Shown here in pieces: positions 8,910 to 49,350 of a stretch of DNA of 64,000 bases (position 1 is its first letter; each line of letters starts with the position of its first letter). The DNA is taken from the NCBI GenBank assembly GCA_041665485.1, contig JBAYIT010000001.1, forward strand, positions 204,270-268,269, read 5' to 3'. The notes below the pieces were generated by a model that worked only from the letters and a program-made list of their open reading frames with translations, was not told the origin of the DNA and did no database searches. The position numbers and the translations under genes are program-made. Source of the stretch: Candidatus Shapirobacteria bacterium (GTDB lineage: Bacteria; Patescibacteriota; Microgenomatia; UBA12405).

Positions 8910-8958
8910 TATGAACAACAGTTTAACAAATTGGAATATGGGATGTAAAGTAGGGGGT

Positions 8959-9485: not shown

Positions 9486-10868
9486 GTGAAAAGTAGAGAA
9501 GAAACATTGTTTGTCTGTAAGAGCTGCGGCAATGAATTTGGGAAGTGGAGTGGGCAGTGTGGAGCGTGCGGGGAGTGGAATTCTTTAAAGGAAGCACCAA
9601 TAACCAAAAAACAATTTCCAAACAAATCCCAATTTCCAAATTCCAAATTAACAAACAGGAAAACGGAATCTATTAATTTGGGGGAAGTGGCCGAGTCAAA
9701 CTCGGTGAAAGATGATAAGGAAATGGTGTTTAAAACTGAAATTGAAGAAGTAGACAGAGTACTGGGGAAGGGAATAGTGGCCGGAGGGGTGATATTGCTG
9801 GCCGGTGAGCCGGGAATTGGCAAGAGTACATTAGTTACTCAAATTGTGGGGAAAATTGGTGGGGTGTATGTGTCAGCAGAGGAGTCGGCTCAACAAGTGG
9901 CGATGCGAGTAAAAAGGCTAGGACTGCCAATGGGGAATTTTGAGGTGTTGGAAACCAATAACGTGGAGGAAGTGGTGGGGTTTGCTGATCGAACAAATAA
10001 AGTGTTCAAATTAATGGTGGTGGACTCGGTGCAAATGTTATTTTCAGAGCAGGGAGTGGGGGCGCCGGGAAGTCCGGGACAAATTAAACAAGTGGCATTG
10101 GCATTAATTGAGATGGCCAAAAGAAAAAATGTGGCGGTGATAATTTTGGGGCATGTGACCAAAGAGGGGGAGATTGCCGGCCCCAAACTTTTGGAGCACA
10201 TGGTGGACACGGTGTTGTATTTTGAGGGAGACAAAAATTCGGACTTGCGGATTTTACGATGCCAAAAAAATCGATTTGGGGCGACGGATGAGGTGGGAAT
10301 TTTCAAGATGTTAGATGTTGGATTGGTAGATCTTAGAGGGGAAGATATAAATTTAACTGGCGATGGTGGAATAAAAATCGGGAGTGCTTTGACAGTGGTG
10401 ATGGAGGGAACCAGGCCGATGATGGTGGAAATCCAAGCATTGGTAACTGAGAGTTTTGCCCCTCAACCGAAGCGGGTGTTTTCGGGGATTGATTATAATC
10501 GAGGGCAACTTTTAGTGGCGGTGGCTCAAAAAACTTTGGGGATGCCACTGTATAAATATGATGTGTTTGTGGCAGTGACGGGAGGAATTAGGACTGAGGA
10601 TACTGGAGCGGATTTGGCAATAATTGGAGCGATGTGGAGCTCTTATAAAAATGAGCCAATTAAAAAATCAAAAATCAAAGATCAAAAATTAATTCAAAAT
10701 TTAAAAATTTCTGGTTTGGTGTTGGTTGGTGAGGTGAGTTTGCTGGGAGAGGTGAAGAAGGTGAGGGGATGGGAAAGACGGGAGAGGGAGGCAAGAGCGC
10801 TGAAAAAGGAATTGCTATATGTAAATAGTATAAGAGAACTTAAGGGTTTGGTAATTGGTAATCAGTAA
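9486..10868 (+). CDS. radA: DNA repair protein RadA/Sms
   Basis: N-terminal C4 zinc finger 'CKSCGNEFGKWSGQCGACGEW'. RecA-like Walker A 'LLAGEPGIGKST'. RadA-specific 'KNRFG' motif. Lon-protease-like C-terminal domain. GTG start. An in-frame repeat insertion lies in the linker ('KKQFPNKSQFPNSKL'). Confidence 0.9.
   Translation: MKSREETLFVCKSCGNEFGKWSGQCGACGEWNSLKEAPITKKQFPNKSQFPNSKLTNRKTESINLGEVAESNSVKDDKEMVFKTEIEEVDRVLGKGIVAGGVILLAGEPGIGKSTLVTQIVGKIGGVYVSAEESAQQVAMRVKRLGLPMGNFEVLETNNVEEVVGFADRTNKVFKLMVVDSVQMLFSEQGVGAPGSPGQIKQVALALIEMAKRKNVAVIILGHVTKEGEIAGPKLLEHMVDTVLYFEGDKNSDLRILRCQKNRFGATDEVGIFKMLDVGLVDLRGEDINLTGDGGIKIGSALTVVMEGTRPMMVEIQALVTESFAPQPKRVFSGIDYNRGQLLVAVAQKTLGMPLYKYDVFVAVTGGIRTEDTGADLAIIGAMWSSYKNEPIKKSKIKDQKLIQNLKISGLVLVGEVSLLGEVKKVRGWERREREARALKKELLYVNSIRELKGLVIGNQ
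9595..9650. repeat. Family-B dispersed repeat ('aaaaacaatttccaaacaaatcccaat…') inserted in-frame in the radA linker
   Basis: Near-identical copies occur at 45181-45240, 48545-48612 and 60358-60462. Confidence 0.7.
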
Positions 10869-36000: not shown

Positions 36001-39000
36001 CCACCGATGCCAACGTTGTTAGTAAAACTTGAATTACCAGTAACACCAATACCACCAGCATTAACAAAGAGATTTTGAGCAAAGGTAGATCGGCCAGTGA
36101 CAGCCAGAGTACCACCGATACTTAAGTTACCAGTGAGATTACCATTACCACTAACATACAAAGCATTAGTATCTGTTCCTCCTACACCTAACTTAGTAAA
36201 GACACCGGCACCAGCAACTTGGAGAGGGTAAAGAGGGGCAGTAGTGCCGATACCGACGTTGCCACCACTTTTAATAGTGACATTTGCAGTATTATTCGTC
36301 CCCAAAATAACGTCATTAGTACCATAAGTTCCTATTACTAAACCTCTTCCCGTTCCACCATTAGGGTTATTTATAATAAAATCATTGGCGTTTCTAGCTG
36401 CTCCCAAAATTGAAGCTACATTATTATTGACACCTGGAACCATAAAAGCCAGGTACTGTCCAGTCGTATCTCCTACCATAAAGCGAAAATCAGCATTAGT
36501 TCCTGTACTTGTATTTTTCATCTGAACCCCTGATATACCGTCCACGTTGTCGCTAATTAAAACCTTTGGAACTGATCCAGAAAGTATGGGGGTAGTAATC
36601 AGACCTCCAATATCAAAAGTGGCATATGGACTTGTAGTCCCAATACCAACATTGCCATTGGTAGTAATCGCCAGAGCTTGGGTGTTGTTATTAACACCCA
36701 TGATGTAGAGATTGTTAGCACCAGTATTAATGAAAGTATTTTGAGTAAGTGTTCCACCAAGGCCAATAGATAATTGATCAGTGCCAGAGACAGAAGTACC
36801 AATACCATTGTAACCAAGGATAGAAGCGGTATTACCAATACCAACTTGTTGAGCAGTACCAGTATTGCCAGCCAACATCCAACTAATGTAGGTGTTGTCT
36901 TGAAAAGCGAGTCCGCCGAGAGCTCTCCGACTAACAACATTATTACTATCGATAAACAAGGCAGTGGTACCAGTACCAGCGACAGTGGAGGCACTTAAAG
37001 TTAAAGTACCACCGATGCCGACGTTGGCAGTAAAAGAAGTATTGGGAGTAAGAGTAATTCCGGAACCAAGAATGGTGGTTAAACCACTGGCATGACCAAG
37101 AGTAAGAGCACTACCATTGTTACTAAAGATGGGAGAGAAAACAGAGGCAGAGAAAGTAGGAGCATTAGTAGTACCAATGGTGACAGTAGAACCAGAGATA
37201 GTATTTAAGATGTTAGTGCCATTGGCAAAATTAACAGTAACACCAACACCGATAGCAGTACTACCAGCACCAGTAGCTTGCAAAAACCAACGATCATCAC
37301 TACCACTCTTATCCCAACTACTAGTATCAAGATAACCAATCAAACCACTATTACCAGAAAGGAAAGCCGCCACACTTGATCCACCAATGGCAGTGTTACT
37401 TAGATTTAAAGAAGCAGTGGTGGTGGTGGTGCCAACACTTAAATCAGCATTAGTGTAGATAGAAGCGGTTGAAGTCCCACCTACCCCTAGTTTAGTAAAG
37501 ACACCAGCACCAGCAACTTGGAGGGGATAAAGGGGAGCGGTGGTGCCGATGCCGACATTGCCAGCCGTAGTAATCGCCAAAGCTTGGGTGTTGTTATTAA
37601 CACCCATGATGTAGAGATTGTTGGTGCCAGTGTTAATGAAAGTGTTTTGAGTAAGTGTTCCACCTAGGCCAAATGTAATTTGACTAGTACCAACTGAAGT
37701 AGAGGTAATACCATTTAGACCAGTAAAGGATAAAGTGGTGCCACCACTGATGGTTTGATTACTAGAAGCTTTAGCAATCCAGTTGTAGGTACTAGCAGTA
37801 CTATCGAGGAAAGCTAGAGCACCTAATGCTCTTTTACTAACGACATTATTACTATCAATAAACAAAGCAGTGGTACCACTACCAGCAACAGTGGAAGCAC
37901 TTAAAGTTAGAGTACCACCGATGCCGACGTTGTTAGTAAAACTTGAATTACCAGTAACACCAATACCACCAGCATTAACAAAGAGATTTTGAGCAAAGGT
38001 AGATCGGCCAGTAACAGCCAGAGTGCCACCAACATCAAGGTTGGTGGTAAATCGACCACTGCCGGTAACATCAAGTTTGTAGGCGGGGGAAGTGTTGCCA
38101 ATACCAACCGAGCCGTTGGCTTGAATGTAAAGATTGGTGTTGGCGCCAGATCCGGAAGTAATTTTGAGAGAATAATTGGAGGAAGAGGTGGAGCCAATAT
38201 CGAGATTGAGACCATTGCCGGAAGAATTTGACGAAACAAGAGAGGCAAGGTTACCAGAGCCTGATGAACCGATACTAAAAACAGTGCCAGTGGCTTTGGT
38301 GTAAAGCTGGGAGAGGTTAAGAATGTTGGCAGTGTCGGAACATGATCCGGAAGACTCGGTGCATTTGGAGGAGAAATTGACCAAGGGGTTAAGGATACTA
38401 AGACTACCGCCGGTGGCTGGTTGGAGAGAAACGGTGGCGCCGGCCCAGATGGAGAGGGTGTTGATGGTGTAACTACTGCTGGTGTTAGCGGCGCCGATTT
38501 GGTAACTGGCAACTCCGGTCACTTGATTAATGCCCTGATTCCAGAGAGATGTTTGCCCGGCTCCAAGGGTAACTGTTCTAACGTTATTAACAGACAGAGT
38601 GGAAAAAACAATTTCTGAAGCATTACTACTAGTGCCGATGGAAAGGTTGGTATTCATGCCACTGGCGGTAGTGGCAACGCCAATAGGGGTAATTTGATTA
38701 ACATTGTAAAAACTGGCAGCGCCGGCGACGAGGCTGGCAGCTTGACCGGACATGGTGATTCCGATGCTGTAAGTGCCAGGAGTAGGGGCAACCAGATACC
38801 AAATATCGGCCCAGGTTTGAGTGCCGGAGGCGGTGGTGGCTTTGGTGAGTGGGGTACCGTTCCAGTAAATGCCGGAAACGGTGCGGGTAAGACTGTTTTG
38901 ATAATTGACACCGACAATTAAAATGTTGTTGGAGTTATTGCCAACTGTGTGGTTGAAATTGAGATTGGTGGTATTACTGACACCGATGGAAGAATTGGCA

Positions 39001-41522
39001 TCGGCGGTGATGGTGGCGCTTCCGCCGGTTATATTGGCGGTTAGATTTCTTAAAACCGAGAGGTCATTATTATTGACAGTGGAATTTCCGGTGTAAGTGG
39101 TGTCGTTGATAATATCTAACTTATTAGTGGGGCTGGTGGTGCCAAGGCCAAAATTGCCGGTGCCAAAAAAGCCGAAGTTATTGCCATTAAGATCGATTTT
39201 GGTGAGTTGGTTGAGAGTGCCACCGAGACCAACAGTTCGAGAAGTTTCAGTTAAGCCGTTGTTGAAAGTATAGGCACTGCCAAAAGCCAGAGCACCAAGA
39301 ATGTTTTTGTATAAATTGCCAGAGGCATCAGTAAAGACGGCGGTGGTGCCGGTGCCAGTAGAACCAAGGCCTAAACCACTAAAATTAACCGTACCACCAA
39401 CTCCCAAACTTCCTGTTCCCCCGACTTGGAGTCTGTAGGTAGGATTGGTGGTGCCGATACCAACATTGCCGATATTTGTAATTGTGACCCTATCGTTAGT
39501 TCCTAAAGCACCAGTGTTGTTAGAAAAGGTAAACGCCCCCGAATTACTATTATCAGCTCCAATTGTCCAAGCGTTTGCTCCCTGAGTGGTATCAAAATAT
39601 ATAGATGGGTCTCCGGCCAAACCTCCTGCAGTTTTAATTATAATTCCTGCGTTAGAATTAGCCGTGTTACTGGTATTTTGTATCGTCATTCCATTGTTGC
39701 CACCTGAGTTACTACCACCAACTGTGAATGCAGGTAATCCGTTTGCGTTTATGGTTACAGCTCCAGTGAAGTTGCCATCTCCAGCAACATTAAGAAGGGC
39801 AGTAGCGTGGGTACCACCAATACCTAATTTAGTGAAATTACCAGCACCATTAACGTCAAGAGTGTAGAGAGGGAGGGTGGTTCCAATTCCGACATTGCCG
39901 GATCCGTCGATAGTTAATCTTCGGGTAGCATTTGTATATAAACTAAATTTGTTGTTTCCGGCAACACCGATTAGTGCATTTGTGGCTGTTCCTGAATCAA
40001 AGCCCGCATCACTTCCCCAATAAGATAAAGCCGTACTACCGACTTTTAAATATTGATAGGTTCCACTGGCAGCTACGCCGTTGATGGTAATTGCACCTGA
40101 TACTTCTATTTTTGTAGTTGGGTTGGTTGTTCCGAGGCCGACTCGGCCAGTGGCGTAATCGAAATACATAACTTCAGTATTACCAATATTAAGTCTGGTA
40201 TTTTGGGTGAGGGCGCCGCCGAGGCCGAAAACATTAGTAGAGATAGCGGATAAACCATTGGTGGTGGAGTAAGTCGTGCCGATGGCGGTGTCGGAGAAAG
40301 CCAGAGAACCGAGAACACGGCGGGTGATAATGTTGGTGGATGGATCAATGAAGAGGGCGGTGGTGCCGGCGCCAACGATAGTGGAGTTTGAAAGGGTTAG
40401 AGCGCCACCAATGTAAACGTTGCCGGAGGCGCCAACGGAAAAACGAGTATTCAATTGAGTGTTGCCAACCCCTAAATCGTAGTTTTGAAATTGAAGAAAA
40501 TTGTAATTATTGGAATAGTTACTTCTGACGATGCCGGAATAAAGATTACCGGAAACCATGTTGGCGTCGGCTTCGGCTTGAACAAAGCCACCAACAGCAG
40601 GGGCGTTCATTTCAAAAGAAAGATCAAGAATGCCGCCAGCATCGGGGTTGATGGTGATGTTGCCACCACTGCCGTCGCTAGCTTTGAGGAGCATGGCTTG
40701 GCCTTCGATGCCAAAAGTGCCGGAAACTGATTTGATGGTGGGGGAGGTTTCGCCAAGGTTGAGGTTGCCAGAGTTATCAAAAACAGCGACGGTATTTTTG
40801 TAACCGATGCCGGAGGTGCCAAGGCCCAAACCCTGAAGAGTTTCGGAATTAAGGGCATAGGCGACGGTGGCAATTTGCTGGCGGGGGTCCATTACTTCGG
40901 TGCCGGCGGTAATTTCTAGCCAAACTTCGGCGTTTTCAGAGAAAACGCTGGGAGGGATTTCAGTGCCGTGAGTTTTGCCAATGACGACATTAAAAATGCC
41001 ATTGTCGTCGGGTTTAACAACTTGACTATTGCCGGTGCCGGAGGTGTAGAGAGAGGTGCCGGCGCCAAGCGTGCCATTGTTCCAGAGTTTAAAAATAATG
41101 CCGGTTTCGGAAGTGATGGGATTGCTGTAGGAATCGGTGAGACGGCCTTGAAAGGAGAGAATTCTGCCGGGGCGGATGGGGGAGGAGGTGGTGGAATAGG
41201 CAAGGTTTTTGCGGGCTTTGAGGATGGTTTGGGAATAGAGGCCGTAGGTGAGACCGGCGAATAATATGAGGAGGGTGGAGAGAACGAGATAACGACTAAA
41301 TGAGATCCTAGATGTTAGATCCTGGATCCTAGATTGGAGGTTGGATGGGGTTGGGGATGGTGGTTGGTAACTGGTAATAAACTTCTTTTTAATTAAGAAT
41401 TTTTTGAAGACGGAGATAGAGGAGAGCTTGCGGTTGATGGTGGCGGGGGAAAGATTTTGGGACTTTAAGTAGTCTTGGTAGGAGGAGAGACGAGAATGAT
41501 CGAAATACTCTTTGAGTTGCAA
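27021..41522 (-). CDS. Giant (4833 aa) membrane-anchored surface protein with tail-fibre-like repeats, an N-terminal integrase core-binding-like domain and the C-terminal 'WWIIN' domain
   Basis: Single uninterrupted ORF. N-terminus 'SYQDYLKSQNLSPATINRKLSSISVFKKFL' (tyrosine-recombinase SAM-like motif), then TM 'YLVLSTLLILFAGLTYGLY'. More than 4000 aa of G/T/S/N-rich repeats with 'GNVGIGTT.P.YKL.V.G'. Five 'SNIQDL(R/K)SK' motifs. C-terminus '…IDNPLDHNIDINWWIIN'. Confidence 0.8.
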   Translation of the reverse strand: MQLKEYFDHSRLSSYQDYLKSQNLSPATINRKLSSISVFKKFLIKKKFITSYQPPSPTPSNLQSRIQDLTSRISFSRYLVLSTLLILFAGLTYGLYSQTILKARKNLAYSTTSSPIRPGRILSFQGRLTDSYSNPITSETGIIFKLWNNGTLGAGTSLYTSGTGNSQVVKPDDNGIFNVVIGKTHGTEIPPSVFSENAEVWLEITAGTEVMDPRQQIATVAYALNSETLQGLGLGTSGIGYKNTVAVFDNSGNLNLGETSPTIKSVSGTFGIEGQAMLLKASDGSGGNITINPDAGGILDLSFEMNAPAVGGFVQAEADANMVSGNLYSGIVRSNYSNNYNFLQFQNYDLGVGNTQLNTRFSVGASGNVYIGGALTLSNSTIVGAGTTALFIDPSTNIITRRVLGSLAFSDTAIGTTYSTTNGLSAISTNVFGLGGALTQNTRLNIGNTEVMYFDYATGRVGLGTTNPTTKIEVSGAITINGVAASGTYQYLKVGSTALSYWGSDAGFDSGTATNALIGVAGNNKFSLYTNATRRLTIDGSGNVGIGTTLPLYTLDVNGAGNFTKLGIGGTHATALLNVAGDGNFTGAVTINANGLPAFTVGGSNSGGNNGMTIQNTSNTANSNAGIIIKTAGGLAGDPSIYFDTTQGANAWTIGADNSNSGAFTFSNNTGALGTNDRVTITNIGNVGIGTTNPTYRLQVGGTGSLGVGGTVNFSGLGLGSTGTGTTAVFTDASGNLYKNILGALAFGSAYTFNNGLTETSRTVGLGGTLNQLTKIDLNGNNFGFFGTGNFGLGTTSPTNKLDIINDTTYTGNSTVNNNDLSVLRNLTANITGGSATITADANSSIGVSNTTNLNFNHTVGNNSNNILIVGVNYQNSLTRTVSGIYWNGTPLTKATTASGTQTWADIWYLVAPTPGTYSIGITMSGQAASLVAGAASFYNVNQITPIGVATTASGMNTNLSIGTSSNASEIVFSTLSVNNVRTVTLGAGQTSLWNQGINQVTGVASYQIGAANTSSSYTINTLSIWAGATVSLQPATGGSLSILNPLVNFSSKCTESSGSCSDTANILNLSQLYTKATGTVFSIGSSGSGNLASLVSSNSSGNGLNLDIGSTSSSNYSLKITSGSGANTNLYIQANGSVGIGNTSPAYKLDVTGSGRFTTNLDVGGTLAVTGRSTFAQNLFVNAGGIGVTGNSSFTNNVGIGGTLTLSASTVAGSGTTALFIDSNNVVSKRALGALAFLDSTASTYNWIAKASSNQTISGGTTLSFTGLNGITSTSVGTSQITFGLGGTLTQNTFINTGTNNLYIMGVNNNTQALAITTAGNVGIGTTAPLYPLQVAGAGVFTKLGVGGTSTASIYTNADLSVGTTTTTASLNLSNTAIGGSSVAAFLSGNSGLIGYLDTSSWDKSGSDDRWFLQATGAGSTAIGVGVTVNFANGTNILNTISGSTVTIGTTNAPTFSASVFSPIFSNNGSALTLGHASGLTTILGSGITLTPNTSFTANVGIGGTLTLSASTVAGTGTTALFIDSNNVVSRRALGGLAFQDNTYISWMLAGNTGTAQQVGIGNTASILGYNGIGTSVSGTDQLSIGLGGTLTQNTFINTGANNLYIMGVNNNTQALAITTNGNVGIGTTSPYATFDIGGLITTPILSGSVPKVLISDNVDGISGVQMKNTSTGTNADFRFMVGDTTGQYLAFMVPGVNNNVASILGAARNANDFIINNPNGGTGRGLVIGTYGTNDVILGTNNTANVTIKSGGNVGIGTTAPLYPLQVAGAGVFTKLGVGGTDTNALYVSGNGNLTGNLSIGGTLAVTGRSTFAQNLFVNAGGIGVTGNSSFTNNVGIGGTLTLSASTVSGTGTTALFIDSNNVVSRRALNGLAFDGLLNLQAGTSMVVTGTGVGATISHADTSSQASSDNSNGIVIQDIGLDGLGHLTSLATVDLDSRYAQSANVSWMLAGSLGTAQSIGLGNTASFLAGSGIGTSISGTDALTITNTGVLSLTGTANQILANGTTATAQTGAVTLTLPQNIHTGATPLFAGLTISSGGIGVSGASVFGNTLSIGNTLTLTNVTANTLVRTNATNQLIGTSGTVNQLMHGDLSWGDVTLGTQTAGNYVSTIIGNSQIGVTGTAGEGVGVSLAIIGDSIGDSQLAFNTGQHLTTSSTPLFAGLTISAGGIGVSGASVFGNSLSVGTTLTTASLSVTGNGSVTGTLSVGNTLTATTAAKSPLFMGNGATVTFGNASYLTTIAGLGLTITPNTSFTANVGIGGTLTLSASTVAGTGTTALFIDSNNVVSKRALGGLAFQDNTYISWMLAGNTGTAQQVGIGNTASILGYNGIGTSVSGTDQLSIGLGGTLTQNTFINTGANNLYIMGVNNNTQALAITTNGNVGIGMTNPTSPFNVYSNSVTQATFNGWDPIGGAQAYNGSVAIGNNAAYQGLIHYNGNGVANLYIDNTYNSAVLGGIFFRTRTAGTPVDAMSILSAGNVGIGTTAPLYKFQVAGEGVFTKLGVGATHSTYSLFINSGGIGITGTSSFSANVGIGGTLTLSASTVAGTGTTALFIDSNNVVSKRALNGLAFDGLLNLQAGTSMVVTGTGVGATISHADTSSQASSDNSNGIVIQDIGLDGLGHLTSLATVDLDNRYAQSANVSWMLAGSLGTAQSIGLGNTASILGYNGIGTSISGTDQLSIGLGGTLTQNTNINLSSYNLSFLGTGNTQSLYLKANGNVGIGTTGPRVNLDIVGTSGVMIDNVASGNALLYLQGKSTNNSVINFRSNTSTSWSIGRDGSDSHKFKIGYGSETFASGVALVIDATGKVGIATTTPSYTLQVGGTGSLGVGGTVNFSGLGIGTTGVGTTAVFIDSSGNLYKNVLGAGAFTSGAGTLYTAGVGISLSSTNVFSNIGVTSILGTTNQITASNPTGAVTLSLPQNIHTGATPLFAGLTISSGGIGVSGASVFGNTLSIGNTLTLTNVTANTLVRTNATNQLIGTSGTVNQLMHGDLSWGDVTLGTQTTGNYATSNAEGGPALSLYGEDNRSIGPTEVNTSNLKFGFTAYNNNSAGPWADFLHLNSYLDGSGGNQNLLEFNKSSLGMRLYQGSFGSTAAYTTYKDIALVDNNPISGYLTKFTGTTATVSITNSLIYDSGTNIGLGTTNPLYKLHVTGEGVFTKLGVGGTSTASIYTNADLSVGTTTTTASLNLSNTAIGGSSVAAFLSGNSGLVGYLDTTAWDKNGANDFIAATNGLQSIGTSSVGLGGTLTQNTNIGVSSFGLSFLGINSNTQALYIASSGNVGFGTTAPSQKVDISGNLNLSGHLVGGDGTNAPANLINNGNFDYWNIGTSSIPDAWISNGGTFSRDTGYKSTYSLKMVDGGAWQGAKYTVPPRSTLTTARKYTLNFWYKSSSTNTLPLQLGVYDGTSYIVAYGNQTLIKDDAWHWQSTNFTIGDDKTISIFMLTNTGTSHAGDTDWIDSVSLYEGDQANAFSTNYNDYLKYGSVSMFGPLGIGATNSSYKLNVSGSANITTNLTIGGTFVSVGSTNTVTNLSADLLDGQHGSYYLNIGNTGDFVQNQFTADQTANLRINGNAMFGGNVGIGATSTAKLNVIGNGNFTTNLSIGGTLSVGSSATISANGIITGTKFVDIGNTAYYFNTSNSTSISDSSLSLYQSGSIRFNAVAVGSTLRHIVSNAATQIRGYSNGLLLASSTSTTGDITGWDNQLFLNSTGNVGIGTTAPLYKLHVNGDALISTRLGIGSTNALYLLNVGGTASFTNLHASGNVGIGTTAPTSSLHLYSTTGSANNPQLTLTSSPSSPGRYSPSIVFQNNDGSSAGWIGSASRITGGFERGSSWVNSALGFDVGNASAGLSRAMTITNYGNVGIGTTNPLYKLEVNGDALISTRLGIGSTNALYLLNVGGTASFTNLYTTGNVGVGTTAPGYTLDVNGIIKSNNTIYSLTTAGTTPKFILVETGRSTWTLSQPTTTSAFHIDQDGNSRLFIQNSTGNVGIGITNPTYKLQVVGNGYLSTSLSVGSSLIVAGGDIKQGGTDDLRLWAGSGNDFYFYKSDGSVSARIDVSTAAGAETLDQGFTGPNNSFAVYGTRLFSQSFTPQASGSLSKVTLQLWKVGAGSYNFSVQLQNCDGNQPNGTVVATSSNIANTSIGETASPGAEYSLTFSTKPYLQAGTKYCLVTTTSTGGDGSNYINVREKDSSSTYTGGQAGYYNGSVWDTASYTAVDMYFKQYYQNNYGSVLHIGSVDTANADLAENYPSTQNLSTGELVTFDLENTGHVLRAQAGSQKLVGVVSTNPGLLLGSSETSQNVYPIALSGRVPVKITLENGAISPGDPLTASTTIEGRAQKATTSGPIIGKALESSSSCSDPGNCTILALVQPSWFDPDTLLTLDTLGQIVTSPETNIQDPGSKIYHLTSSNGSAVTRLGQFSQALIANLKAGIINTSKLVSNDIETQTITPISNTGIGSTLKIGGDTEVIGSLFAQNIKTPSLNVDHLDSLTSNIQDLKSKTITAQDIGVTTLSANAITALTSNIQDLRSKDATISGILYADQIISREGNFGDLMTQKISALRDEVKKIIDTSTVTTPPEDVLLSQSENWLADISTGSAQITGSLALTDNLVVAGQLAVAGQAELADALISGTLQSGQIIIKDNLIETTASVLYIQPSKVGTINIMNNTLIIADNGDVTVNGNIYLNGTLTAQTATISGSLSTYLITASDIQTTSLTALTSNIQDLRSNKLTILPNVAIAQADPSESATQSAEIASNTTAGTTTLIAGQTEIIILNNQLTSASMVYLTPVGSTNNQVIYIKDKYIDPTSNIQDLKSSFTIAIDNPLDHNIDINWWIIN

Positions 41523-41568: not shown

Positions 41569-42025
41569 TTAATTTGTGGGTTGTGAATTTGTCCATGTGA
41601 TATATTGGCGTAAATCAGAGATGTAGTTTTTGATAGTTGAAGGGGTGGCATGGTGGGTGGAGAGATAGGTAGCAAACTGTGATATAAGTGCATCAGGGGT
41701 GGGTGGAGGCGGGGAGGCAAGAGAATGGCGAATTTTCTTGAGGGGATTGTGGTCAATCAATTTTTGGTCGAGGGCAAATTGGCAGAAAGAGGAAAGAGAT
41801 GCTAAATACCTCCGGTAGTTAGAATTGGCGGATACTTTGTTAACAAAATCGGAAATTACTTTGGAGTCAAATGGATTACCTTGGCCAACCGAGTCGAAAT
41901 AGGTATAGAGGTCGGAGAGGTAGTTGCGGATAGTGGAATCGGAGTAAGACTTGGATGAAAGCCAGGCACGATAGGAGTTAGAGATCTTAGATCTTAGATC
42001 TTGGATGTTAGATGTTGAGGACATG
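41569..42025 (-). CDS. Stand-alone protein made of integrase N-terminal SAM-like (core-binding) domains, with no catalytic domain
   Basis: 'YSDSTIRNYLSDLYTYF…NYRRYLASLSSFCQFALDQKLIDHNPLKKI' and a second 'ATPSTIKNYISDLRQYITW' match the XerC/D core-binding pattern LSP.TI..Y…L..F..F…NP. Starts 'MSSTSNIQDLRSK'; the ORF track used a TTG start at 42042. Confidence 0.6.
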
Positions 42026-42260
42026 GTTAGCGCCAGAGCCAAACAAAGGAGGTGGCAATGATTAGAAAGGGAATGAGCCGTTCAACTACCGGTTTTACCG
42101 AATATAAAATTTTAGCTTCAAAATTAGACTTTTTAGACATTGTTATCAGTTATTAATAATTAATAATTTAAATATCTACTATATTGAAAAAGCTGTCAAG
42201 AAGGGGAAATTAAGCATTAAATGATGTAGATAGATAGGATCAATTAAGATAGTTTTCAGT

Positions 42261-42565: not shown

Positions 42566-42985
42566 ATGAAAAGTTCGAAGTTGATAGTTTACGGATTGTT
42601 GATGGTGGTGGGAGTGGGATTGATTTATTTCATGACAACACAAGTAATTCCTCGGGCGTTGGTGTCGATGACTAAGGCAGCGCCAAGCCAGAGAGTATCG
42701 TTTACTAATTCGTTGATTTTGGGAGAGAGGGTGTTGGTGACAGCAGATGGAGTGGAAAATGCTAAGGTAAATGTATTCGTAATGGATGATTCAGGCAAGG
42801 GAATACCGAATAGGTCGGTTGAATTATCAGGTCAAGCTGATAGTTCACCAGTAACAGCAACAACTGACGGCGAGGGGATGGCAAGTTTTGAATTTAGTTC
42901 AAAGAAAGAAGGAGTGATTGAGGTGACGGCGAGTATTGAGGGGGTGGATTTGGGCAAGAAGATGCGGGTGACGTTTAGGAATTAA
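42566..42985 (+). CDS. Small membrane-anchored protein with one Ig-like/Big-type domain
   Basis: N-terminal TM 'LIVYGLLMVVGVGLIYF'. The domain 'VLVTADGVENAKVNVFVMDDSGKGIPNRSVELSGQ…' is paralogous to the convergent gene. Confidence 0.5.
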   Translation: MKSSKLIVYGLLMVVGVGLIYFMTTQVIPRALVSMTKAAPSQRVSFTNSLILGERVLVTADGVENAKVNVFVMDDSGKGIPNRSVELSGQADSSPVTATTDGEGMASFEFSSKKEGVIEVTASIEGVDLGKKMRVTFRN

Positions 42986-43398
42986 TAAAACGTAATTTTG
43001 ACTGTCTGGGGTAAAACGGTGGAATTGATTTGGGCTTTGAGGGTGTAGGTGCCGGCTTCCGGAGAGGCGAGGTCGAAGGTGGCTTGGCCGGTGTCGTTGG
43101 TGGTGTCGGAGCTATTGATGGTGATGAGGGGTGAGGGCTTATCTAGAGAAATAAGGAGGTTGGGAATACCCAGACCGCGGGAGTCGAGTAAGAAGACAGT
43201 CAAGCGGATGATTTCTTTGCCGTCGGCTTTGGCAGTTAAGGGAGAGGCGAAAAGATAGGAGTTTTGGCTAAAATCGGTGGTGGTGGGGGAAGAGGAGGCA
43301 CGGGAGTTGAGGTTAGTGGTGCGGTAGATGAGAAAGAGGGTGGCGCCGAGGGCACAGAGGAGAATGAGGATAACGATAAAATTTTTAATTTTAAATTT
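42982..43398 (-). CDS. Convergent paralogue of the Ig-like protein; open frame with a TM segment but no canonical start codon
   Basis: The frame is open from the TAA stop at 43405-43407 and reads 'NLKFKIKNFIVILILLCALGATLFLIYRTT…LTVFLLDSRGLGIPN…KITFY*'. The only Met-like codon is TTG at 43203. The stop codons of the two convergent genes overlap (ttaa). Confidence 0.35.
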   Translation of the reverse strand, partial: KFKIKNFIVILILLCALGATLFLIYRTTNLNSRASSSPTTTDFSQNSYLFASPLTAKADGKEIIRLTVFLLDSRGLGIPNLLISLDKPSPLITINSSDTTNDTGQATFDLASPEAGTYTLKAQINSTVLPQTVKITFY

Positions 43399-43452
43399 TA
43401 AATTTTAAATAAAGATATTGATTTTATTATATCTGTTTTTAGAATTAAAAAT

Positions 43453-44262
43453 TTAGAATTTAGAATTAGACTGAAAAGGGATTAGGCTTTTGGGGAAAAG
43501 AGCAGGAAAGTAGTGCTTGGATTTCTTTTGATTTAGTAGAACTAAAACGATGAGAGTAATGAGGGTGAAGAAATAGCAGAGGAGGAGGATAATTGATAAG
43601 AGGTTACTTTCCGACTTTAGTCGGTAATTCAGGGAGAAAGAGTTAGGAGATGGACTACTGTTAATGAGGGTAGTAGCGAAAAGGCGGTATTGTCCGTAAT
43701 GATCGGTGGGGAGGGAGAAACTAAATCGACCTTGTTGGTTGCTTTTAGTTTCCAGGGGAGGGAGACTGGCGGCGTGGGCTTCGGGGATGAGAGAACGAGT
43801 GGAGCTAACTTGGTAAAAGTGAATCAGAACCAGCGAATTGGGAATTGTTTGGCCAGAGGCCGGAGTGGTGGCGTAAGCTTTGAGATTATCAGCGTCGAGA
43901 GTGAGGGTGGGAGGGAGGATGATGGGGCCTAGGTCAGTGTGATAGTTGTTGGGTGGAGGAGGGGGAATGCAAACAGGAAGAGATCGACGGGAGGATTCGT
44001 CGGTGCTGGAAAGACAAAGATCGGAGGGATTTTCCGGTAATATGGTTTTAGTAAATTCAAAATAGCCATTGGGGTCGGAAAAAGTGAGGGAGTAGACACG
44101 GGGGCTGGTTATTTCAACCCGGGAATTGGGAGAAGTGTAGCCAAAAATAGTTGCTTGATGTAAACCAATAGTCGCGGATATGGAAACGGATTTGACGGAT
44201 TCAATAGAAAACGACGAATTAGGGTTTAGAAAAAAAAGAGCGAAAAGGAGAATTGGGCCCAC
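43453..44262 (-). CDS. Secreted protein with a C-terminal TM anchor and Cna-B/carboxypeptidase-regulatory-like β-sandwich repeats
   Basis: Signal peptide. 'PNGYFEFTKTIL' and 'NQQGRFSFSLPTDHYGQYRLFATT'. C-terminal TM 'LLSIILLLCYFFTLITLIVLVLL' followed by a basic tail. Confidence 0.5.
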   Translation of the reverse strand: MGPILLFALFFLNPNSSFSIESVKSVSISATIGLHQATIFGYTSPNSRVEITSPRVYSLTFSDPNGYFEFTKTILPENPSDLCLSSTDESSRRSLPVCIPPPPPNNYHTDLGPIILPPTLTLDADNLKAYATTPASGQTIPNSLVLIHFYQVSSTRSLIPEAHAASLPPLETKSNQQGRFSFSLPTDHYGQYRLFATTLINSSPSPNSFSLNYRLKSESNLLSIILLLCYFFTLITLIVLVLLNQKKSKHYFPALFPKSLIPFQSNSKF

Positions 44263-44264
44263 AA

Positions 44265-45266
44265 TTATTTGTCCTTATACTTGTTTTTGAGAGAATCGAG
44301 TTCTTTTTCTAGCTCTTCGATTTGAGCGCTAGGAGGGCCTTGGCGGGTGAGGAGTTTGACGATGGCAATGATGATGACGACAGCCAGAAGGGAGAGGATG
44401 ATGAGCTTCCAGGGGATAATCCAGAAGAAGAGAGTGGCGGTGAGAATACCGCCAGCGCTACCGTAGCCGGTAGTTAAATTAGCTTGATAACGGCCAAAGA
44501 GCCATTTGCGGTTTAATTGATTTTCGTAGGTGCGATTGGTGTAAGGAAAAATATTGACCGATTCTAAAGGTAGTTGAGCCGTTTGGCCATTGAGCCAGTT
44601 TTTAATAGTGATTTCGCCGATGGGAGCGATGTGAATATCGGAGAGGTTGTTGATGGTGGTTTTGAAATCAACCGGTCCGTACTCCTGAAAATTAGGAGCA
44701 GTAAATTGGCTAACTTTAGCTTCTTGATTGATTGGCCCGGCAACGGTGATGTAGATGAGGCTACCGACGTTAGTGAGAATGGTGGAGCCGGTTTGAGAGA
44801 GAACAGCTTCGTTGTTGGGAGAATGGAGGACCATGGCATAGTGGCCGCCGGGAGTAGCGTCGTTGGGAGCAATAACGGTTAAAATAAGTGATTTAGTTTC
44901 ACCCGGTTTGAGTTTAAGGTTGGTTTCGGAAACTTGGAGCCAATTAGAAGCGGCCCAGCGATTTTGTTCGGCTGACTTAGCATCGATTTGAGTGGGAGTG
45001 CCAATGTCATTGACGACAACGAAGTCTTTGGTGGAAGTGGTGATAAATCTTTCGACGTTGGATTCGTTTCTGACTTTGAGCTCTTTGGAAACAACTTCTC
45101 CCGGTTTAACGGTGATTTCCAGGCGGGGAGGAATGGCGGTTAGGCCAAGAGCCGACTGTGCGCGTATACCAGTCGGAATTTCCAATGACCAAAAAACAAT
45201 TTCCAAACAAATCACAAAAGCCAATTTCCAAAGAGAATTTGAGTATGAGTTTTGAGATTTGATCAT
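44265..45266 (-). CDS. DUF916/DUF3324-like (CscA-like) cell-surface protein with a C-terminal TM anchor
   Basis: 'LTAIPPRLEITVKPGEVVSKELKVRNESN' is a DUF916-type N-terminal domain. C-terminal TM 'LTATLFFWIIPWKLIILSLLAVVIIIAIVKLL' followed by a charged tail. The signal peptide is encoded by the family-B repeat. Confidence 0.5.
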   Translation of the reverse strand: MIKSQNSYSNSLWKLAFVICLEIVFWSLEIPTGIRAQSALGLTAIPPRLEITVKPGEVVSKELKVRNESNVERFITTSTKDFVVVNDIGTPTQIDAKSAEQNRWAASNWLQVSETNLKLKPGETKSLILTVIAPNDATPGGHYAMVLHSPNNEAVLSQTGSTILTNVGSLIYITVAGPINQEAKVSQFTAPNFQEYGPVDFKTTINNLSDIHIAPIGEITIKNWLNGQTAQLPLESVNIFPYTNRTYENQLNRKWLFGRYQANLTTGYGSAGGILTATLFFWIIPWKLIILSLLAVVIIIAIVKLLTRQGPPSAQIEELEKELDSLKNKYKDK

Positions 45267-45310
45267 TGGAGCTTGTTTGGAACTTGTAGATTTGTAATTT
45301 GTTTTTTAGG

Positions 45311-46771
45311 TTAAAAGGTTGCTGTAGCAGTATAGGTTAACTGATTTTCGTAATTGCCAGCGGGTTGAGTGCTGGAAGCAACTAAACGATAGCAAATATA
45401 GGCTTGTTCGGTGGCAGCGGGAGTACTGGCGTTACTCATGATAGATTGAGCTTGAGAATAACTTTTACCGAAAGCTTTGTAGAGAGAAGTGGAGCCGACC
45501 CCAACAGTGTTGGCGCTAATATTTTGTAGGGTGTAACCCCAGCTGGATTGGGTAACGTCGGTGACCCAGGTATTGCCAACAGAATAGGTGCAGGTGCCGG
45601 CATCGCAGTTGGTGTCGGGAATAGTGTTGCCGGTGCCAAAATCTTTCATTTGGTCGGTTTCATAGACAGTAACAACATAGCCGTTATCGGCATTGGTAAC
45701 ACAGGAAAGGCGTTGGGCGAGATTATTGAAGGCGGCTAGATTAAGAGAGCCGAAAGCGACGGCGGTAGCGGTGGTGTTGGCAGCATTGGAGCCGAGAGTG
45801 TTACCGCAAACGACGTTAGAAGCACTGGTGCCGACAGCGTCGACGTAAAAAGTAATTGAGGGATCGACAGTGGCGGTGACACGAACACTTTCAACAACAG
45901 CAATTTTGCCTTCGATGGTGTCATCGGTGATAATGGCATCGGTGTCGTCTAAATGGCGAATGAAGAAAGAGTAAGTATCGGCAGTGGAGTTGGCTTGACC
46001 TTCAGTGTGAGATAGAGCCGGAGCCGGATTAATAAGTTGACTACCGGAAGCTAGGGCTCGGCCGATAGTGACGGTTGCGCCAACTCCGACGGGGTTGGTG
46101 ACGCCGGCGGCCAGGTCGCAGAGAATGACGTGATAGCTATTACTATTAATAACGGCGGTGGTGCCAACGGAGGCGGTGCCAAAGGGGCAAGAAACGTCGG
46201 CAGCAGTTAGCCGTGTGCCAAGGCCGGCGGAGCCGGAGCTGGGAGTAGTGGCACCGAAGTCAAATCCTTGCTGATCAGGAATACCGTCGTTGTAAGTTTC
46301 TCCGGAGCGACTAGTGGCTTTGATTAAGAACTGCCAAGCACCGGCAGTTTTGTTTGATTGAGGAGTAAAGGAAATAGTGTGAATAGCAGAGCGGGTGGCG
46401 ATAACGGCGTTGCCAACAAACGAGGCGAGGTGGGAAACAGTGGTGCCGATTTGAAAAGTGGCAGTATTACCAAGACCATTAACAGTGTAGGTGTTGAGGG
46501 TGGTGGCGCCACTGGTGCCGATGGCAATAGTATCGCCAACAAAAAGATTGTTAGTAGTGTTGCTGGGATTGGCAGTAAGGGCAATTTTGAGGATGGTGTC
46601 GTTTATGGTGTTACCGGTGCCCAGACGGGCAAAATAAGAGAGTTGGGAGGTGGAAAGAGTGTCTTTAACGTTGATAGGGCGGACTGATTGAAGCTTTTGA
46701 GGGCGAAGAGAAATAAAAATAGAGGCAATAATAAAACAGGCTAGGGGTAAAAAAATTTTTTGATGTTTCAC
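45311..46771 (-). CDS. WxL-like surface protein, 486 aa
   Basis: Signal peptide. Thr/Gly/Ala-rich low-complexity body. The C-terminal '…PAGNYENQLTYTATATF' resembles the WxL-domain terminus (AG.Y…LTWTL…P). Confidence 0.45.
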   Translation of the reverse strand: MKHQKIFLPLACFIIASIFISLRPQKLQSVRPINVKDTLSTSQLSYFARLGTGNTINDTILKIALTANPSNTTNNLFVGDTIAIGTSGATTLNTYTVNGLGNTATFQIGTTVSHLASFVGNAVIATRSAIHTISFTPQSNKTAGAWQFLIKATSRSGETYNDGIPDQQGFDFGATTPSSGSAGLGTRLTAADVSCPFGTASVGTTAVINSNSYHVILCDLAAGVTNPVGVGATVTIGRALASGSQLINPAPALSHTEGQANSTADTYSFFIRHLDDTDAIITDDTIEGKIAVVESVRVTATVDPSITFYVDAVGTSASNVVCGNTLGSNAANTTATAVAFGSLNLAAFNNLAQRLSCVTNADNGYVVTVYETDQMKDFGTGNTIPDTNCDAGTCTYSVGNTWVTDVTQSSWGYTLQNISANTVGVGSTSLYKAFGKSYSQAQSIMSNASTPAATEQAYICYRLVASSTQPAGNYENQLTYTATATF

Positions 46772-47604
46772 TTTGGTGATTTAATATTAGTAGTGGGCCG
46801 AAAGGTTGTCAACAGGCGAATTATTAGGAGAAAAGTAATTAGGATCAGGGGAGAAAGAGGGAGGATGTAAAAATTAACCGATGTTTGGCCAAGAGTGGCA
46901 GTATAAAGCCCTGGCCAAAAGGGTGGTTTAAGAAAGCAATTAACCGGTAATTTTTGAGAATCGAGGCAGCGAAAGGGGCGGGAATTATTGGCTAAAATGT
47001 TATCTGGGGCCAGAGTGAGGCGGGAAATTTCCAGATTATTTTTGGTGATAATAATTTGATCTTGAATTTTAGTGAAATGGGAAGTGGAATTAGTGATTTG
47101 GCCGGAAAAGTTTAGAGGAGTAAGAAATATGTCTTTGATTTGAGGGGAGATAGTAAAGATGGTGGTGGTTTTCTGGGGCAGATTTTGGGAGGGAGAAAAG
47201 GAGAGGAGGAGGTGGGAGCCAATACGGGCGGAAACAGAGGTGGAGTTGCCGTCGGCGACGGCCGATGGCTCTTGAGATATAAATAGGGTGTAGTAGGCAT
47301 CGGTGGGAGCGAAGTTGGTATCAGAGGAAATTTTGAGAACCAGTTGTTGACTTTGGCCTGGTCCGAGGCGGAAAGGTTGACCAAGCCGAAGGTCGCTATT
47401 ATTGAGTTCAAAATAAATGCCGGGGGGAGTGGTAACAGAGTCGTAGGTAACCGAGCCATTGGAGCCTTTGGGGAGCCAAGGGAGAATGGAGGTGGTGACT
47501 ATTTGGGGCGAATCGGAGAGATTTTGGATGTCAAAGGCTTGGGTGACTTTAATTCCGGGCTTGATGACTAGTTCGACTTGGGCAGGGGAGATGGAGAGTT
47601 TCAT
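46768..47604 (-). CDS. DUF916/DUF3324-like (CscA-like) protein lacking an N-terminal signal peptide
   Basis: Starts directly with 'MKLSISPAQVELVIKPGIKVTQAFDIQNLSD', the DUF916-type domain. C-terminal TM 'FYILPLSPLILITFLLIIRLL' followed by a basic tail. ATGA overlap with the GxxExxY gene. Confidence 0.45.
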   Translation of the reverse strand: MKLSISPAQVELVIKPGIKVTQAFDIQNLSDSPQIVTTSILPWLPKGSNGSVTYDSVTTPPGIYFELNNSDLRLGQPFRLGPGQSQQLVLKISSDTNFAPTDAYYTLFISQEPSAVADGNSTSVSARIGSHLLLSFSPSQNLPQKTTTIFTISPQIKDIFLTPLNFSGQITNSTSHFTKIQDQIIITKNNLEISRLTLAPDNILANNSRPFRCLDSQKLPVNCFLKPPFWPGLYTATLGQTSVNFYILPLSPLILITFLLIIRLLTTFRPTTNIKSPK

Positions 47605-47885
47605 ACAGATTTACACGAATTTATAACGGATTTACACTGATCTTTAGCGGATTCACACGGATCCATTGTCCACACCAGTCTCTTGATGTAGAGCTTGGAA
47701 GCACCGAAGTTAATCAAAAGTCCGAGTTGATAATTGGTTGATTTTAGATAATGAAGAAGTTGTTGTTTGGTTTGATAGACTTGCTCTTTGTGACCAAAAC
47801 CAAGACTGTTGTAGACATTAAACACTGCCCCCCGAATGGAGTAGGACAAGTCGGCGTAAATCAGCTTTTTATCTGTGGTAATCAT
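47601..47885 (-). CDS. GxxExxY-family protein
   Basis: 'LIYADLSYSIRGAVFNVYNSLGFGHKEQVYQTKQQLLHYLKSTNYQLGLLINFGASKLYIKRLV' matches TIGR04256. The gene sits between the WxL and DUF916 genes with taATG / ATGA overlaps. Confidence 0.6.
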   Translation of the reverse strand: MITTDKKLIYADLSYSIRGAVFNVYNSLGFGHKEQVYQTKQQLLHYLKSTNYQLGLLINFGASKLYIKRLVWTMDPCESAKDQCKSVINSCKSV

Positions 47886-48649
47886 TAGTACTTAGGAATG
47901 GCAGTAAAATTAATAGAATTTTGGTATTGGCCCTCGGGTTGGAGAGGGGAGATGTTAACTTTGTAGGTGATTTGATTGATATGATCTTTGACGGGGGAAT
48001 TTTCTGAGGCAATGATTTGGGGAATTTCGCTAGTTGCTTGGTTGGCAAATTGGCGGTAGTGGGAGGTGGTGGCAAAATAGGTGGTGGCGCCGGGGCCGGA
48101 GGCGCCGATGCCAAAGCCGTATTTGGAATCGTCGTCCCAAAGAGCGGAGGTGGTTTCGGAACAATTGGCAAGATTGCAAGTGGTGTCGGGAATGGTTTGA
48201 CCGATTGAATTGGTGAGGGGGTGATTTTGAGAAACAGTGACGTCGTAGCCATGACCAGAGGGCGTAGTGATGGTGAGAGTGTTGGTAAGAGTGGTGCCAA
48301 CATTGGGGGTAAGGGAGCCAAAATTTAGATCGAGATTATCAATTTCAAAAGAAAATTTATTAATTAGGATGTCGTAGATGTATTGAAAACCCATTTTGGC
48401 AGTGTAGCCATTGGAATCAAATTGGCCGGGGGCATTTTGACCAACGGTGTCGGTTAAAGAATAGTTGTTGGATGATTTTTTGCCGGATGTCATATTGAAA
48501 TTACCCCAGTCGATAGTGTAGGTGGCGGATTCAAAATGTTGGGATCGCGCCGGAGGCGGAAATAACAAATTACAAAAAACAATTTCCAAACAAATCCCAA
48601 TGACCAAAACCGGCAAATTTTTAATTTTTAATTTTAAATTTTTAATCAA
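47885..48649 (-). CDS. WxL-like surface protein, 254 aa
   Basis: Signal peptide encoded by the family-B repeat. C-terminal '…QPEGQYQNSINFTAIPKY' is WxL-like. Confidence 0.45.
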   Translation of the reverse strand: MIKNLKLKIKNLPVLVIGICLEIVFCNLLFPPPARSQHFESATYTIDWGNFNMTSGKKSSNNYSLTDTVGQNAPGQFDSNGYTAKMGFQYIYDILINKFSFEIDNLDLNFGSLTPNVGTTLTNTLTITTPSGHGYDVTVSQNHPLTNSIGQTIPDTTCNLANCSETTSALWDDDSKYGFGIGASGPGATTYFATTSHYRQFANQATSEIPQIIASENSPVKDHINQITYKVNISPLQPEGQYQNSINFTAIPKY

Positions 48650-48711: not shown

Positions 48712-49350
48712 TTAAATGTCTTCCGATTTATCATCAATTTCAGAAGTTAGTTTTTGGGAGGAATTTAAAAGAGACTTGGCCGAGTCTTTGACGAATTTGA
48801 GTTGTTCTTTTTGGGTATGAGGGAGAGTAGGGTTGGAAAGAAGGACAGAAGTGGTGTCGATTATCTTGACAATGCCGGTTTTGAATTTAAGGGTGAGCCA
48901 GAGAAAAAAATCGGTTTCGTCGGTGGCTAGAGTGGAGGTGAGACGCTGGTTTTGGAGGAATTGATGGCCAATAAACCAAGCGAGTGGAGTAACAAAAACG
49001 ATGGAAATTAAAGGGATAACAGAGGGAGGAGAGTTGAGTGATTGAGAAAGGAGAATAACTTGAGTAAAAGAGAGGGCCATGGTGGTGGAGGGAGGGTTTT
49101 GGAAGGAAACGGTAAAGAGAAGAAAGTAGATCAGAAAGAAGAAGGGCGAATTGAGACCACCAGTGCTAAAAACAACCAGATGACAGATGATGGATAGAAA
49201 GTAATTTAAGCTTCGGGAGTATTTTTTAACAATAAAGGGAGTAATGATGCCAGTAATGGCAATGAGCTGGGGAGCGAGATTTTCAAAGGGAGTGAGAGTA
49301 AAGAGAAAGGGGATGGCGGCAGTGAGACAGAAATAGATGATGGAGAACAT
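48712..49350 (-). CDS. Polytopic membrane protein, hypothetical
   Basis: Five to six hydrophobic segments and a C-terminal hydrophilic tail. Confidence 0.45.
   Translation of the reverse strand: MFSIIYFCLTAAIPFLFTLTPFENLAPQLIAITGIITPFIVKKYSRSLNYFLSIICHLVVFSTGGLNSPFFFLIYFLLFTVSFQNPPSTTMALSFTQVILLSQSLNSPPSVIPLISIVFVTPLAWFIGHQFLQNQRLTSTLATDETDFFLWLTLKFKTGIVKIIDTTSVLLSNPTLPHTQKEQLKFVKDSAKSLLNSSQKLTSEIDDKSEDI

Follow-up and report, generated by a model that had tools for sequence, protein, structure and literature searches.

Introduction

A pilus of the Candidate Phyla Radiation (CPR) was recently described in a preprint, in which filaments of PamA and PamB from Ca. Mycosynbacter amalyticus were resolved by cryo-electron microscopy (cryo-EM; bioRxiv 10.64898/2026.03.03.709456). 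PamA and PamB consist of an N-terminal beta-sandwich, a linker strand that is donated to the neighbouring subunit and a truncated immunoglobulin (Ig)-like C-terminal domain, and the donated linker is among their most conserved regions. It was proposed that PamT is a single-domain tip pilin, that PamC and PamD are PapD/FimC-like chaperones with a C-terminal transmembrane (TM) helix, and that PamR is a TM-anchored protein in which two FnIII-like domains come with an extra strand at the N-terminus. Pam homologs were found mainly in Saccharimonadia and Microgenomatia (bioRxiv 10.64898/2026.03.03.709456). Here we analyze a locus in a 64,000-nucleotide stretch of a Candidatus Shapirobacteria genome (Microgenomatia; assembly GCA_041665485.1, contig JBAYIT010000001.1, positions 204,270 to 268,269), which we call the window and in which all coordinates are counted. 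On its minus strand, between 43453 and 48649, lie six tightly packed and co-directional open reading frames (ORFs), designated A, X, B, C, D and E. Together with the gene M, directly upstream of A, they probably represent, as M-A-(X)-B-C-D-E, a divergent Microgenomatia-type Pam pilus operon, known here from its genes.

A second described system that has to be considered is the WxL/Csc cell-surface cluster of Firmicutes (Lactobacillales, Bacillales). WxL clusters encode WxL proteins of two sizes, a small and a large one, together with a WxLIP, which combines DUF916, DUF3324 and a TM segment (PMC9772566, PMC10599100). In AlphaFold2 (AF2) models a hairpin of the WxLIP DUF916 domain is predicted to insert into the WxL domain (PMC10599100). 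The WxL proteins themselves are regarded as bound to peptidoglycan and not as filamentous. A preliminary description of the window had assigned the six ORFs to a divergent, possibly undescribed branch of this system in a non-Firmicutes context. All six ORFs exist where it had placed them, and the non-Firmicutes context is right, since hypothetical proteins with sequences 100% identical to A and C are encoded by a Ca. Shapirobacteria metagenome-assembled genome (MAG). As a gene set the six need correction, as X is not part of the system and a seventh gene, M, heads the block. The Csc filing is not the best one, since the proteins match the NCBIfam models NF058579 and NF058581, both of which derive from the Pam preprint, and the Pam operon architecture much better.

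The pilin candidates A and C

A (47885-48649, minus strand) is a 254 amino acid (aa) protein with a signal peptide and the C-terminus PEGQYQNSINFTAIPKY, and its sequence is that of a PamT-like single-domain pilin. It matches NF058579 (CPR_pilus_PamT) with E=3.3e-11 along model positions 9-241 of 241, and NF058581 (Pam_pilin_C) with 3.8e-6. The PamT model was matched in 46/46 A orthologs (best 8e-16) and the pilin C-domain in 45/46. Among 131 diverse representatives of the A family, taken at 50% identity, 115 match Pam_pilin_C and 101 match PamT. The family is large, with 1787 representatives at E<=1e-3 (~1800 clusters at 50% identity); the best 150 matches of the A-family profile are all at <=1e-33 and comprise close relatives only, so that remote links to Saccharimonadia or Firmicutes lie beyond the reach of this search. 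By these model matches A is clearly homologous to PamT, at a level below that of an equivalog. A contains a conserved cysteine pair (C158/C163), and a motif scan found no linker or donor motif in it. A pilin domain that comes with no donor linker is the reason why a position at the tip is suggested for A.

C (45311-46771, minus strand; 486 aa) is predicted to be a two-domain pilin with a signal peptide, and its C-terminus is PAGNYENQLTYTATATF. The C-terminal third is homologous to A (BLASTP 9e-14; hhalign 99.8%), and aa 334-486 align with NF058581 at 2.3e-4; the same model was matched by 28/48 C orthologs (best 5.5e-7). The model structure of C was predicted with AF2 (predicted local distance difference test, pLDDT, 87.5) and contains two beta domains, an N-terminal beta-sandwich (~aa 33-291) and a C-terminal pilin domain (~aa 330-486), that are joined by aa 292-311. 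Foldseek searches with C returned chaperone-usher pilins (CfaB with a probability of 1.0; Saf, PapK/G) as well as the TasA fibre (0.98), and fibres of both kinds are built with donor strands. With its N-terminal beta-sandwich, conserved linker and C-terminal pilin domain, C matches the plan of the Pam major pilins. A comparison of A, C, the D-, C-, A- and E-family profiles and the D ortholog P0090 with PDB chains, in a set that is without the PamA/PamB entries 25PZ/25QA, gave nothing relevant.

Fused forms of the PamT-like domain were also observed. A 2559-aa Ig-repeat protein (P0468) ends in this domain, three cluster representatives (P0489, P0508 and P0510) carry it behind M, and P0432 joins it to a B-like segment. 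These fusions may be real, pointing to a tip adhesin and to a functional link between M and A, or they may be artefacts of gene calling or frameshifts.

A candidate donor-strand signature

A candidate for the donor strand is the interdomain linker of C (aa 292-311; 45839-45898, minus strand; VVESVRVTATVDPSITFYVD). When 15-residue windows are compared along the whole C family, conservation peaks within this linker, at aa 294-308 (ESVRVTATVDPSITF), in a stretch with an alternating V-x-V-x-A-x-V pattern, which reads V-R-V-T-A-T-V within ESVRVTATVDP. This ultra-conserved linker agrees with the linker of PamA and PamB in the preprint. A comparable strand is found in E, at the mature N-terminus (aa 21-33; 44164-44202, minus strand), where it reads ESVKSVSISATIG; the E orthologs carry [S]V-x-[IV]-[ST]-[AG]-[STY]-[IV] directly after the signal peptide. 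This strand mirrors the V-R-V-T-A-T-V of the C linker and is a candidate capping donor strand. A PamR-like role in capping and anchoring can be suggested for E, since both the linker-mimicking strand and the TM helix of this protein fit such a role.

The membrane proteins D, B, E and M

D (44265-45266, minus strand; 333 aa) is a membrane-anchored, chaperone-like protein. In its AF2 model (pLDDT 81.5) a signal helix leads into two Ig-like beta-sandwiches, at aa 48-175 and 183-283; a TM helix (286-308) comes next, and a conserved helix on the cytoplasmic side (312-331) follows. B (46768-47604, minus strand; 278 aa) is a paralog of D over the full length (BLASTP 3e-10; hhalign 99%) and is likewise a chaperone-like protein of two beta-sandwiches with a C-terminal TM segment and a basic tail. 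Both proteins fit the plan of PamC and PamD, which are two-domain chaperones with a C-terminal TM helix. One strong C-terminal hydrophobic 19-mer, followed by basic residues, was found in each of B (aa 247-265), D (aa 288-306) and E (aa 224-242). Hydrophobic N-termini are present in A, C, D and E and missing in B.

The missing signal peptide of B is a property of the clade. B is without it in 30/30 Shapirobacteria-type loci, while a signal peptide that ends in AQ is present in 24 more distant loci. In the Shapirobacteria-type loci B begins at the first beta-strand and the upstream stop codon is 0-40 codons away, often 0-15. B keeps its C-terminal TM helix and basic tail though it is without a signal peptide, and an N-terminal part of ~245 aa precedes them. 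The insertion of X as a cause of this loss was considered and rejected, because B orthologs are without the signal peptide in insertion-free genomes too.

E (43453-44262, minus strand; 269 aa), the candidate PamR-like terminator or anchor, begins with a signal peptide and the N-terminal strand. Two predicted beta-sandwich domains follow, with a CIPPPP linker between them, and the protein ends in a TM helix and a cytoplasmic tail. Its orthologs show weak matches to Big_6 (9/25, best 4.3e-4) and to CarboxypepD_reg (11/25, best 0.003). E had been regarded in the preliminary description as a Cna-B-like protein with a TM anchor; the anchor is there, whereas for Cna-B nothing was found beyond these weak matches.

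M (48712-49350, minus strand) is a polytopic membrane protein of 212 aa with at least three hydrophobic segments, and it matches no Pfam or NCBIfam model. It is the first gene of the conserved block and is found upstream of A in 37 related loci.

The cytoplasmic parts of D and E are conserved as well. The cytoplasmic helix of D is almost invariant (VEELEKELxxLKxKYxD), and the tail of E (within 43453-43590) has a conserved [RK]-[YF]-L-P-A-[IL] just after the TM helix, with KHYFPALF in the window. This conservation suggests contacts on the cytoplasmic side, perhaps with M.

Conservation and genomic context

A scan of one genome per GTDB species resulted in 79 loci that keep the order A-B-C-D. 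When the genes were mapped with hidden Markov models, the order MABCDE was found in 26 loci, MABCD in 10 and ABCD in 14, and the rest were truncated subsets or near-variants of the same order. By their record titles the loci come from Shapirobacteria, Woesebacteria, Microgenomates, Paceibacterota and Cerribacteria, apart from titles that are evidently placeholders. The recurrence of one gene order across 79 CPR species loci shows that the arrangement is not a matter of chance, and by the loci found the operon is conserved and restricted to CPR. All homologs that were seen are annotated as 'hypothetical'. Many public MAG records with the operon (loci L008, L010, L016, L040, L054, L060 and others) are titled 'uncultured Gammaproteobacteria', 'Pseudomonadales bacterium' or 'Candidatus Methanoperedens sp.', and these non-CPR titles look like placeholder or wrong labels or contaminated bins.

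In six metagenomic/genomic loci the block lies between divergent comEA/comEC and downstream giant surface proteins, which in the orthologous loci contain Peptidase_S74 or Laminin_G_3/DUF2341. In the window it lies likewise between comEA/comEC and a 4833-aa surface protein. The giant Peptidase_S74 proteins fit the 'tail fibre-like' neighbour of the preprint. Scans for promoters and terminators gave results no better than those with shuffled sequences.

Comparison with the Pam pilus and proposed assembly

The likeness to Pam concerns most parts of the operon. Both systems are restricted to CPR, have a PamT-like single-domain pilin and show no usher, ATPase or sortase, here as far as the block and the window go. 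Both contain two paralogous PapD-like two-Ig proteins with a C-terminal TM helix, a TM-anchored protein with an extra N-terminal strand and two beta-sandwiches, which in E are predicted from weak matches, paired cysteines in the pilin domains and an adjacent giant 'tail-fibre-like' protein. The matches thus described mark the locus as a divergent branch of the recently described Pam system, and not as an equivalog. The differences are that the polytopic M heads the operon here, that the gene order is simpler, that E is not detectably RbmA-like, that the signal peptide of B was lost in this clade, and that the neighbours are comEA/comEC here and ATP synthase, corB and MFS genes there.

Several observations weigh against the assignment to Pam. 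The PamT score of A is 43 bits, compared to a curated equivalog cut-off of 240, and the pilin C-domain scores are 21-27 bits, compared to a curated cut-off of 55. B, D and E match no Pam-specific NCBIfam model, and no RbmA-like_FnIII match was found in E. All M. amalyticus components have signal peptides whereas B has none, and there is a single two-domain pilin gene here instead of three in M. amalyticus. The constant neighbours are comEA/comEC, and no ATP synthase genes were noted beside the block. The likeness of A and C to PamA and PamB (PDB 25PZ, 25QA) is drawn from sequence models and the described architecture. Donor-strand exchange and polymerisation are deduced from motif and conservation arguments.

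If the operon does encode a Pam-type pilus, its assembly would be chaperone-assisted, would require neither usher nor sortase, and would proceed by donor-strand exchange on the outer face of a single membrane. A, C, D and E, whose hydrophobic N-termini were observed, would be exported by Sec through their N-terminal signal peptides. D, and possibly B, would be held in the membrane by the C-terminal helix and would temporarily occupy the groove that is open in the C-terminal domain of the pilin. A would be located at the distal tip and nucleate assembly, and C would then polymerise by placing its linker, ESVRVTATVDP, into the groove of the C-terminal domain of the preceding subunit. E, which has no acceptor pilin domain, would cap the last C with its strand and anchor the fibre with its TM helix. 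The filament would probably serve in contact with a host or partner cell.

Another option is that the proteins are homologous to Pam and yet form a static, membrane-tethered adhesin complex of fixed size (D-C or E-C-A) and not a long pilus. There is only one gene for a two-domain pilin, the polymerisation of C is deduced from its sequence, and the fusions of the A family to a giant adhesin-like N-terminus (P0468) or to M fit the display of a single copy. Yet, the would-be donor linker is the most conserved segment of C, and a linker and a groove that are compatible with each other within one protein are the hallmark of a polymerising subunit. Moreover, the homologous PamA and PamB form long filaments, as seen by cryo-EM (bioRxiv 10.64898/2026.03.03.709456). 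We therefore regard a static complex as unlikely.

The Pam-type pilus that we favour resembles chaperone-usher pili (Pap/Fim, CFA/I, Csu) in its pilin domain, as seen with Foldseek, and donor-strand complementation and exchange are presumably shared as well. Unlike those pili, it would be built with neither an outer membrane nor an usher, with membrane-anchored chaperones and from a pilin that has an extra N-terminal domain. The donor strand of the chaperone-usher pili is an N-terminal extension, while here it would be an internal linker. No gene of the block matches an usher family, and a true usher pilus was rejected on this ground.

Comparison with WxL/Csc clusters and other fibres

A true WxL/Csc complex would have A and C as degenerate WxL domains that bind the cell wall non-covalently, B and D as WxLIP that keep them at the surface, and E in place of the LPXTG protein CscD, with no filament. 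The cluster logic is indeed shared. In both cases a small protein consists of a single domain, a larger one ends in that domain, and a two-Ig protein has a TM helix at its C-terminus, so that the composition of a minimal WxL cluster is matched, and the small anchored protein (E here, the LPXTG protein there) gives a fourth parallel. The insertion of a DUF916 hairpin into the WxL domain is also the same idea as strand complementation by a chaperone. In addition, the C-terminal pattern of A and C, Y-x-x-x-[LI]-x-[FYW]-x-[AL], recalls the distal WxL motif and is visibly like it, with no statistical support.

For comparison, genuine WxL loci were collected from metagenomes by a degenerate DNA pattern for the PGBD motif NQIDKxxxYFDLK, and they yielded 21 WxLIP, 43 small WxL proteins and nine large-WxL C-termini. 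One of the WxLIP comparators was validated against PDB 9i1y/9i25_C at 1e-43; since a large WxL protein matched no PDB chain, the WxL comparators rest on motifs and on adjacency to validated WxLIP genes.

The first domain of D gives a weak link to this system. D itself scores 12.9 bits against PF06030 (DUF916/WxLIP_PGBD), where the cut-off is 27.3, but among its orthologs 37/46 match at E<=0.1 in one register (best 2.6e-6). One of them, P0090, reaches 27.9 bits, above the gathering cut-off of 27.3, and carries the NCBI name 'DUF916 domain-containing protein'. The D family aligned with WxLIP by hhalign at 90% (P=1.4e-6) with signal peptides included, and the mature domain 1 of D aligned with PGBD at 67% (P=5e-5), compared to <=8% in cross-family controls. 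From these profile comparisons the first domain of D appears to be weakly but specifically related to DUF916/WxLIP. The relation does not extend further. B has no PF06030 match, and trimmed B reaches 2% against WxLIP with hhalign. DUF3324/HBD (PF11797) is not found among the Pfam matches of the D orthologs, the second domain of D reaches 1% against HBD, and the NQIDKxxxYFDLK motif is absent from D. The preliminary description had considered both B and D as DUF916/DUF3324-like with a TM segment and a charged tail; the TM segment and the tail hold for both and DUF916 is weakly supported for domain 1 of D, whereas DUF3324, and DUF916 in the case of B, found no support.

For A and C no relation to WxL domains was found. 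PF13731 is matched by neither of them, nor by any of 48 C orthologs and 131 A-family representatives. Comparison of the A family and the C-terminal domain of C with the 43 small and nine large WxL domains by hhalign gave <3% outside signal peptides (P 0.02-0.5). The C-termini quoted in the preliminary description are both present in A and C, but their WxL-like character found no support in these comparisons, and no Trp is found in either tail. Across the six proteins Pfam gave no WxL, DUF3324 or Cna_B match, and neither a sortase TLxTC motif nor a C-terminal LPXTG was found in ORFs >=100 aa of the window. Trp-x-Leu motifs mark the WxL domain, an LPXTG protein and a sortase are usual in WxL/Csc clusters, if not obligatory, and none of these was found here, and this locus belongs to CPR and not to Firmicutes. 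With A and C matching the Pam models instead, we consider a true WxL/Csc complex to be quite improbable. Thus, of the profile checks that the preliminary description had named, DUF916 gave a weak signal and WxL and DUF3324 gave none; the locus mirrors Csc loci in architecture and not in WxL or DUF3324 similarity, and as an undescribed branch of Csc it is explained much less well than by the Pam models and operon architecture.

It is possible, though doubtful, that the Pam pilus and WxL/Csc are two branches of one ancient monoderm system. In such a case WxLIP and the PamC/D-like proteins would be homologous anchored chaperones that complement strands, with the small and large subunits as clients. 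No such connection is made in the literature that was searched, where none of the ten best-ranked papers combined DUF916 with a CPR term, and the Pam preprint mentions neither WxL nor DUF916.

A TasA/TLP-like or sortase-dependent (Cna-B-type) Gram-positive fibre, for which the weak matches of E to the transthyretin-like CarboxypepD_reg might be taken, is highly improbable, as neither Cna_B nor TasA families were matched by sequence, the block shows no recognisable SipW/TapA-like genes, the window shows neither a sortase motif nor a C-terminal LPXTG, and the Pam models were matched. TasA and TasA-like fibres also differ from this locus in that chaperone-like proteins are present here. A sortase-dependent pilus was rejected, with a negative motif scan of the window and no Cna_B/SpaA match in A-E.

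The inserted gene X

X (47601-47885, minus strand; 94 aa) is an internally deleted ORF of the GxxExxY/PD-(D/E)XK_3 type, which matches TIGR04256 (1.2e-13) and PF13366 (3e-12), each as two separated stretches. X is the remnant of an inserted selfish gene and not part of the system, because in other genomes its site is empty or occupied by a different gene. At the A-B junction, L001 has a 23S_rRNA_IVP gene (8598-8972, four-helix bundle), and L002, L004 and L005 have no gene. The start and the stop of X overlap the neighbouring genes. At the next junction, between B and C, a PPDK gene on the opposite strand was seen in L002 and L006.

Neighbouring genes

Downstream of E lies F (42982-43400, minus strand), a small Big_1 (invasin-like Ig) protein with an N-terminal TM segment, which matches PF02369 at 3.5e-10. 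It is a conserved neighbour, as a Big_1 gene follows E in 5/6 loci and the orthologs in L001, L002, L005 and L006 are 137-150 aa long. The frame of F is intact, including the N-terminal TM segment (NFIVILILLCALGATLFLIY), and no ATG, GTG or TTG is found before MTVFLL; either a non-canonical start codon is used or the start was lost. A second Big_1 gene is located at 42566-42985 on the plus strand and is convergent with F.

The 4833-aa ORF (27021-41522, minus strand) has long internal repeats and no Pfam match at E<=0.01. By eye, its first segment resembles a phage-integrase SAM-like domain and is followed by a TM segment. Before it, at 41569-42042 on the minus strand, a 157-aa protein is encoded in which only Phage_int_SAM domains were found (7.2e-9). 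In L001, L002 and L004 the operon is likewise followed by a small SAM-like gene and a giant surface protein of the S74 type.

A possible repeat element and strand asymmetry

The exact 23-mer ATTTGTTTGGAAATTGTTTTTTG occurs three times on the minus strand of the window (9605-9627, 45190-45212 and 48573-48595), where no such repeat is expected by chance. The copies sit in ~45 nt of wider similarity, and a partial inverted copy is found at 45273-45299. Two of the 23-mers lie in frame in the regions that encode the signal peptides of D and A, where they read ICLEIVF and place an odd Glu in the hydrophobic core. The third is antisense within a RadA-like gene and reads KKQFPNKSQFPN. By analogy with the Rickettsia palindromic elements, the 23-mer looks like a small repeat element that is tolerated in coding sequence.

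Strand asymmetry in the window is extreme. The GC skew at third codon positions, counted on the plus strand, lies between +0.44 and +0.86 in every gene from 9.4 to 64 kb, whichever strand is coding. Since it is positive throughout this region, genes on the minus strand are C-rich and their proteins are rich in Pro, Ser and Thr. Three genes at 1.2-8.4 kb have a skew near 0 and a lower G+C (0.34-0.39), with a change-point near 8.5-9.4 kb. This change could be explained by a foreign island, by a join in the assembly or by a skew boundary.

Implications

A large part of bacterial diversity belongs to CPR/Patescibacteria; their few cultivated members live attached to host cells, and most of their attachment machinery is unannotated. 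The compact Pam-type operon proposed here would be conserved in synteny across Shapirobacteria, Woesebacteria and related lineages, in a family that current curated models miss. The set is compact, and its predicted components are a single tip pilin, a single shaft pilin, a pair of tethered chaperone-like proteins and an anchor. It offers testable handles, which are the donor-strand motif shared by C and E, the lineage-specific loss of the B signal peptide and the sequence bridge to DUF916/WxLIP. If Pam and WxL/Csc are indeed branches of one system, WxL clusters would work by donor-strand complementation, possibly with short fibres, and not by simple binding to peptidoglycan. A real DUF916/WxLIP bridge would recast how the WxL surface clusters of enterococci, listeriae and lactobacilli work.

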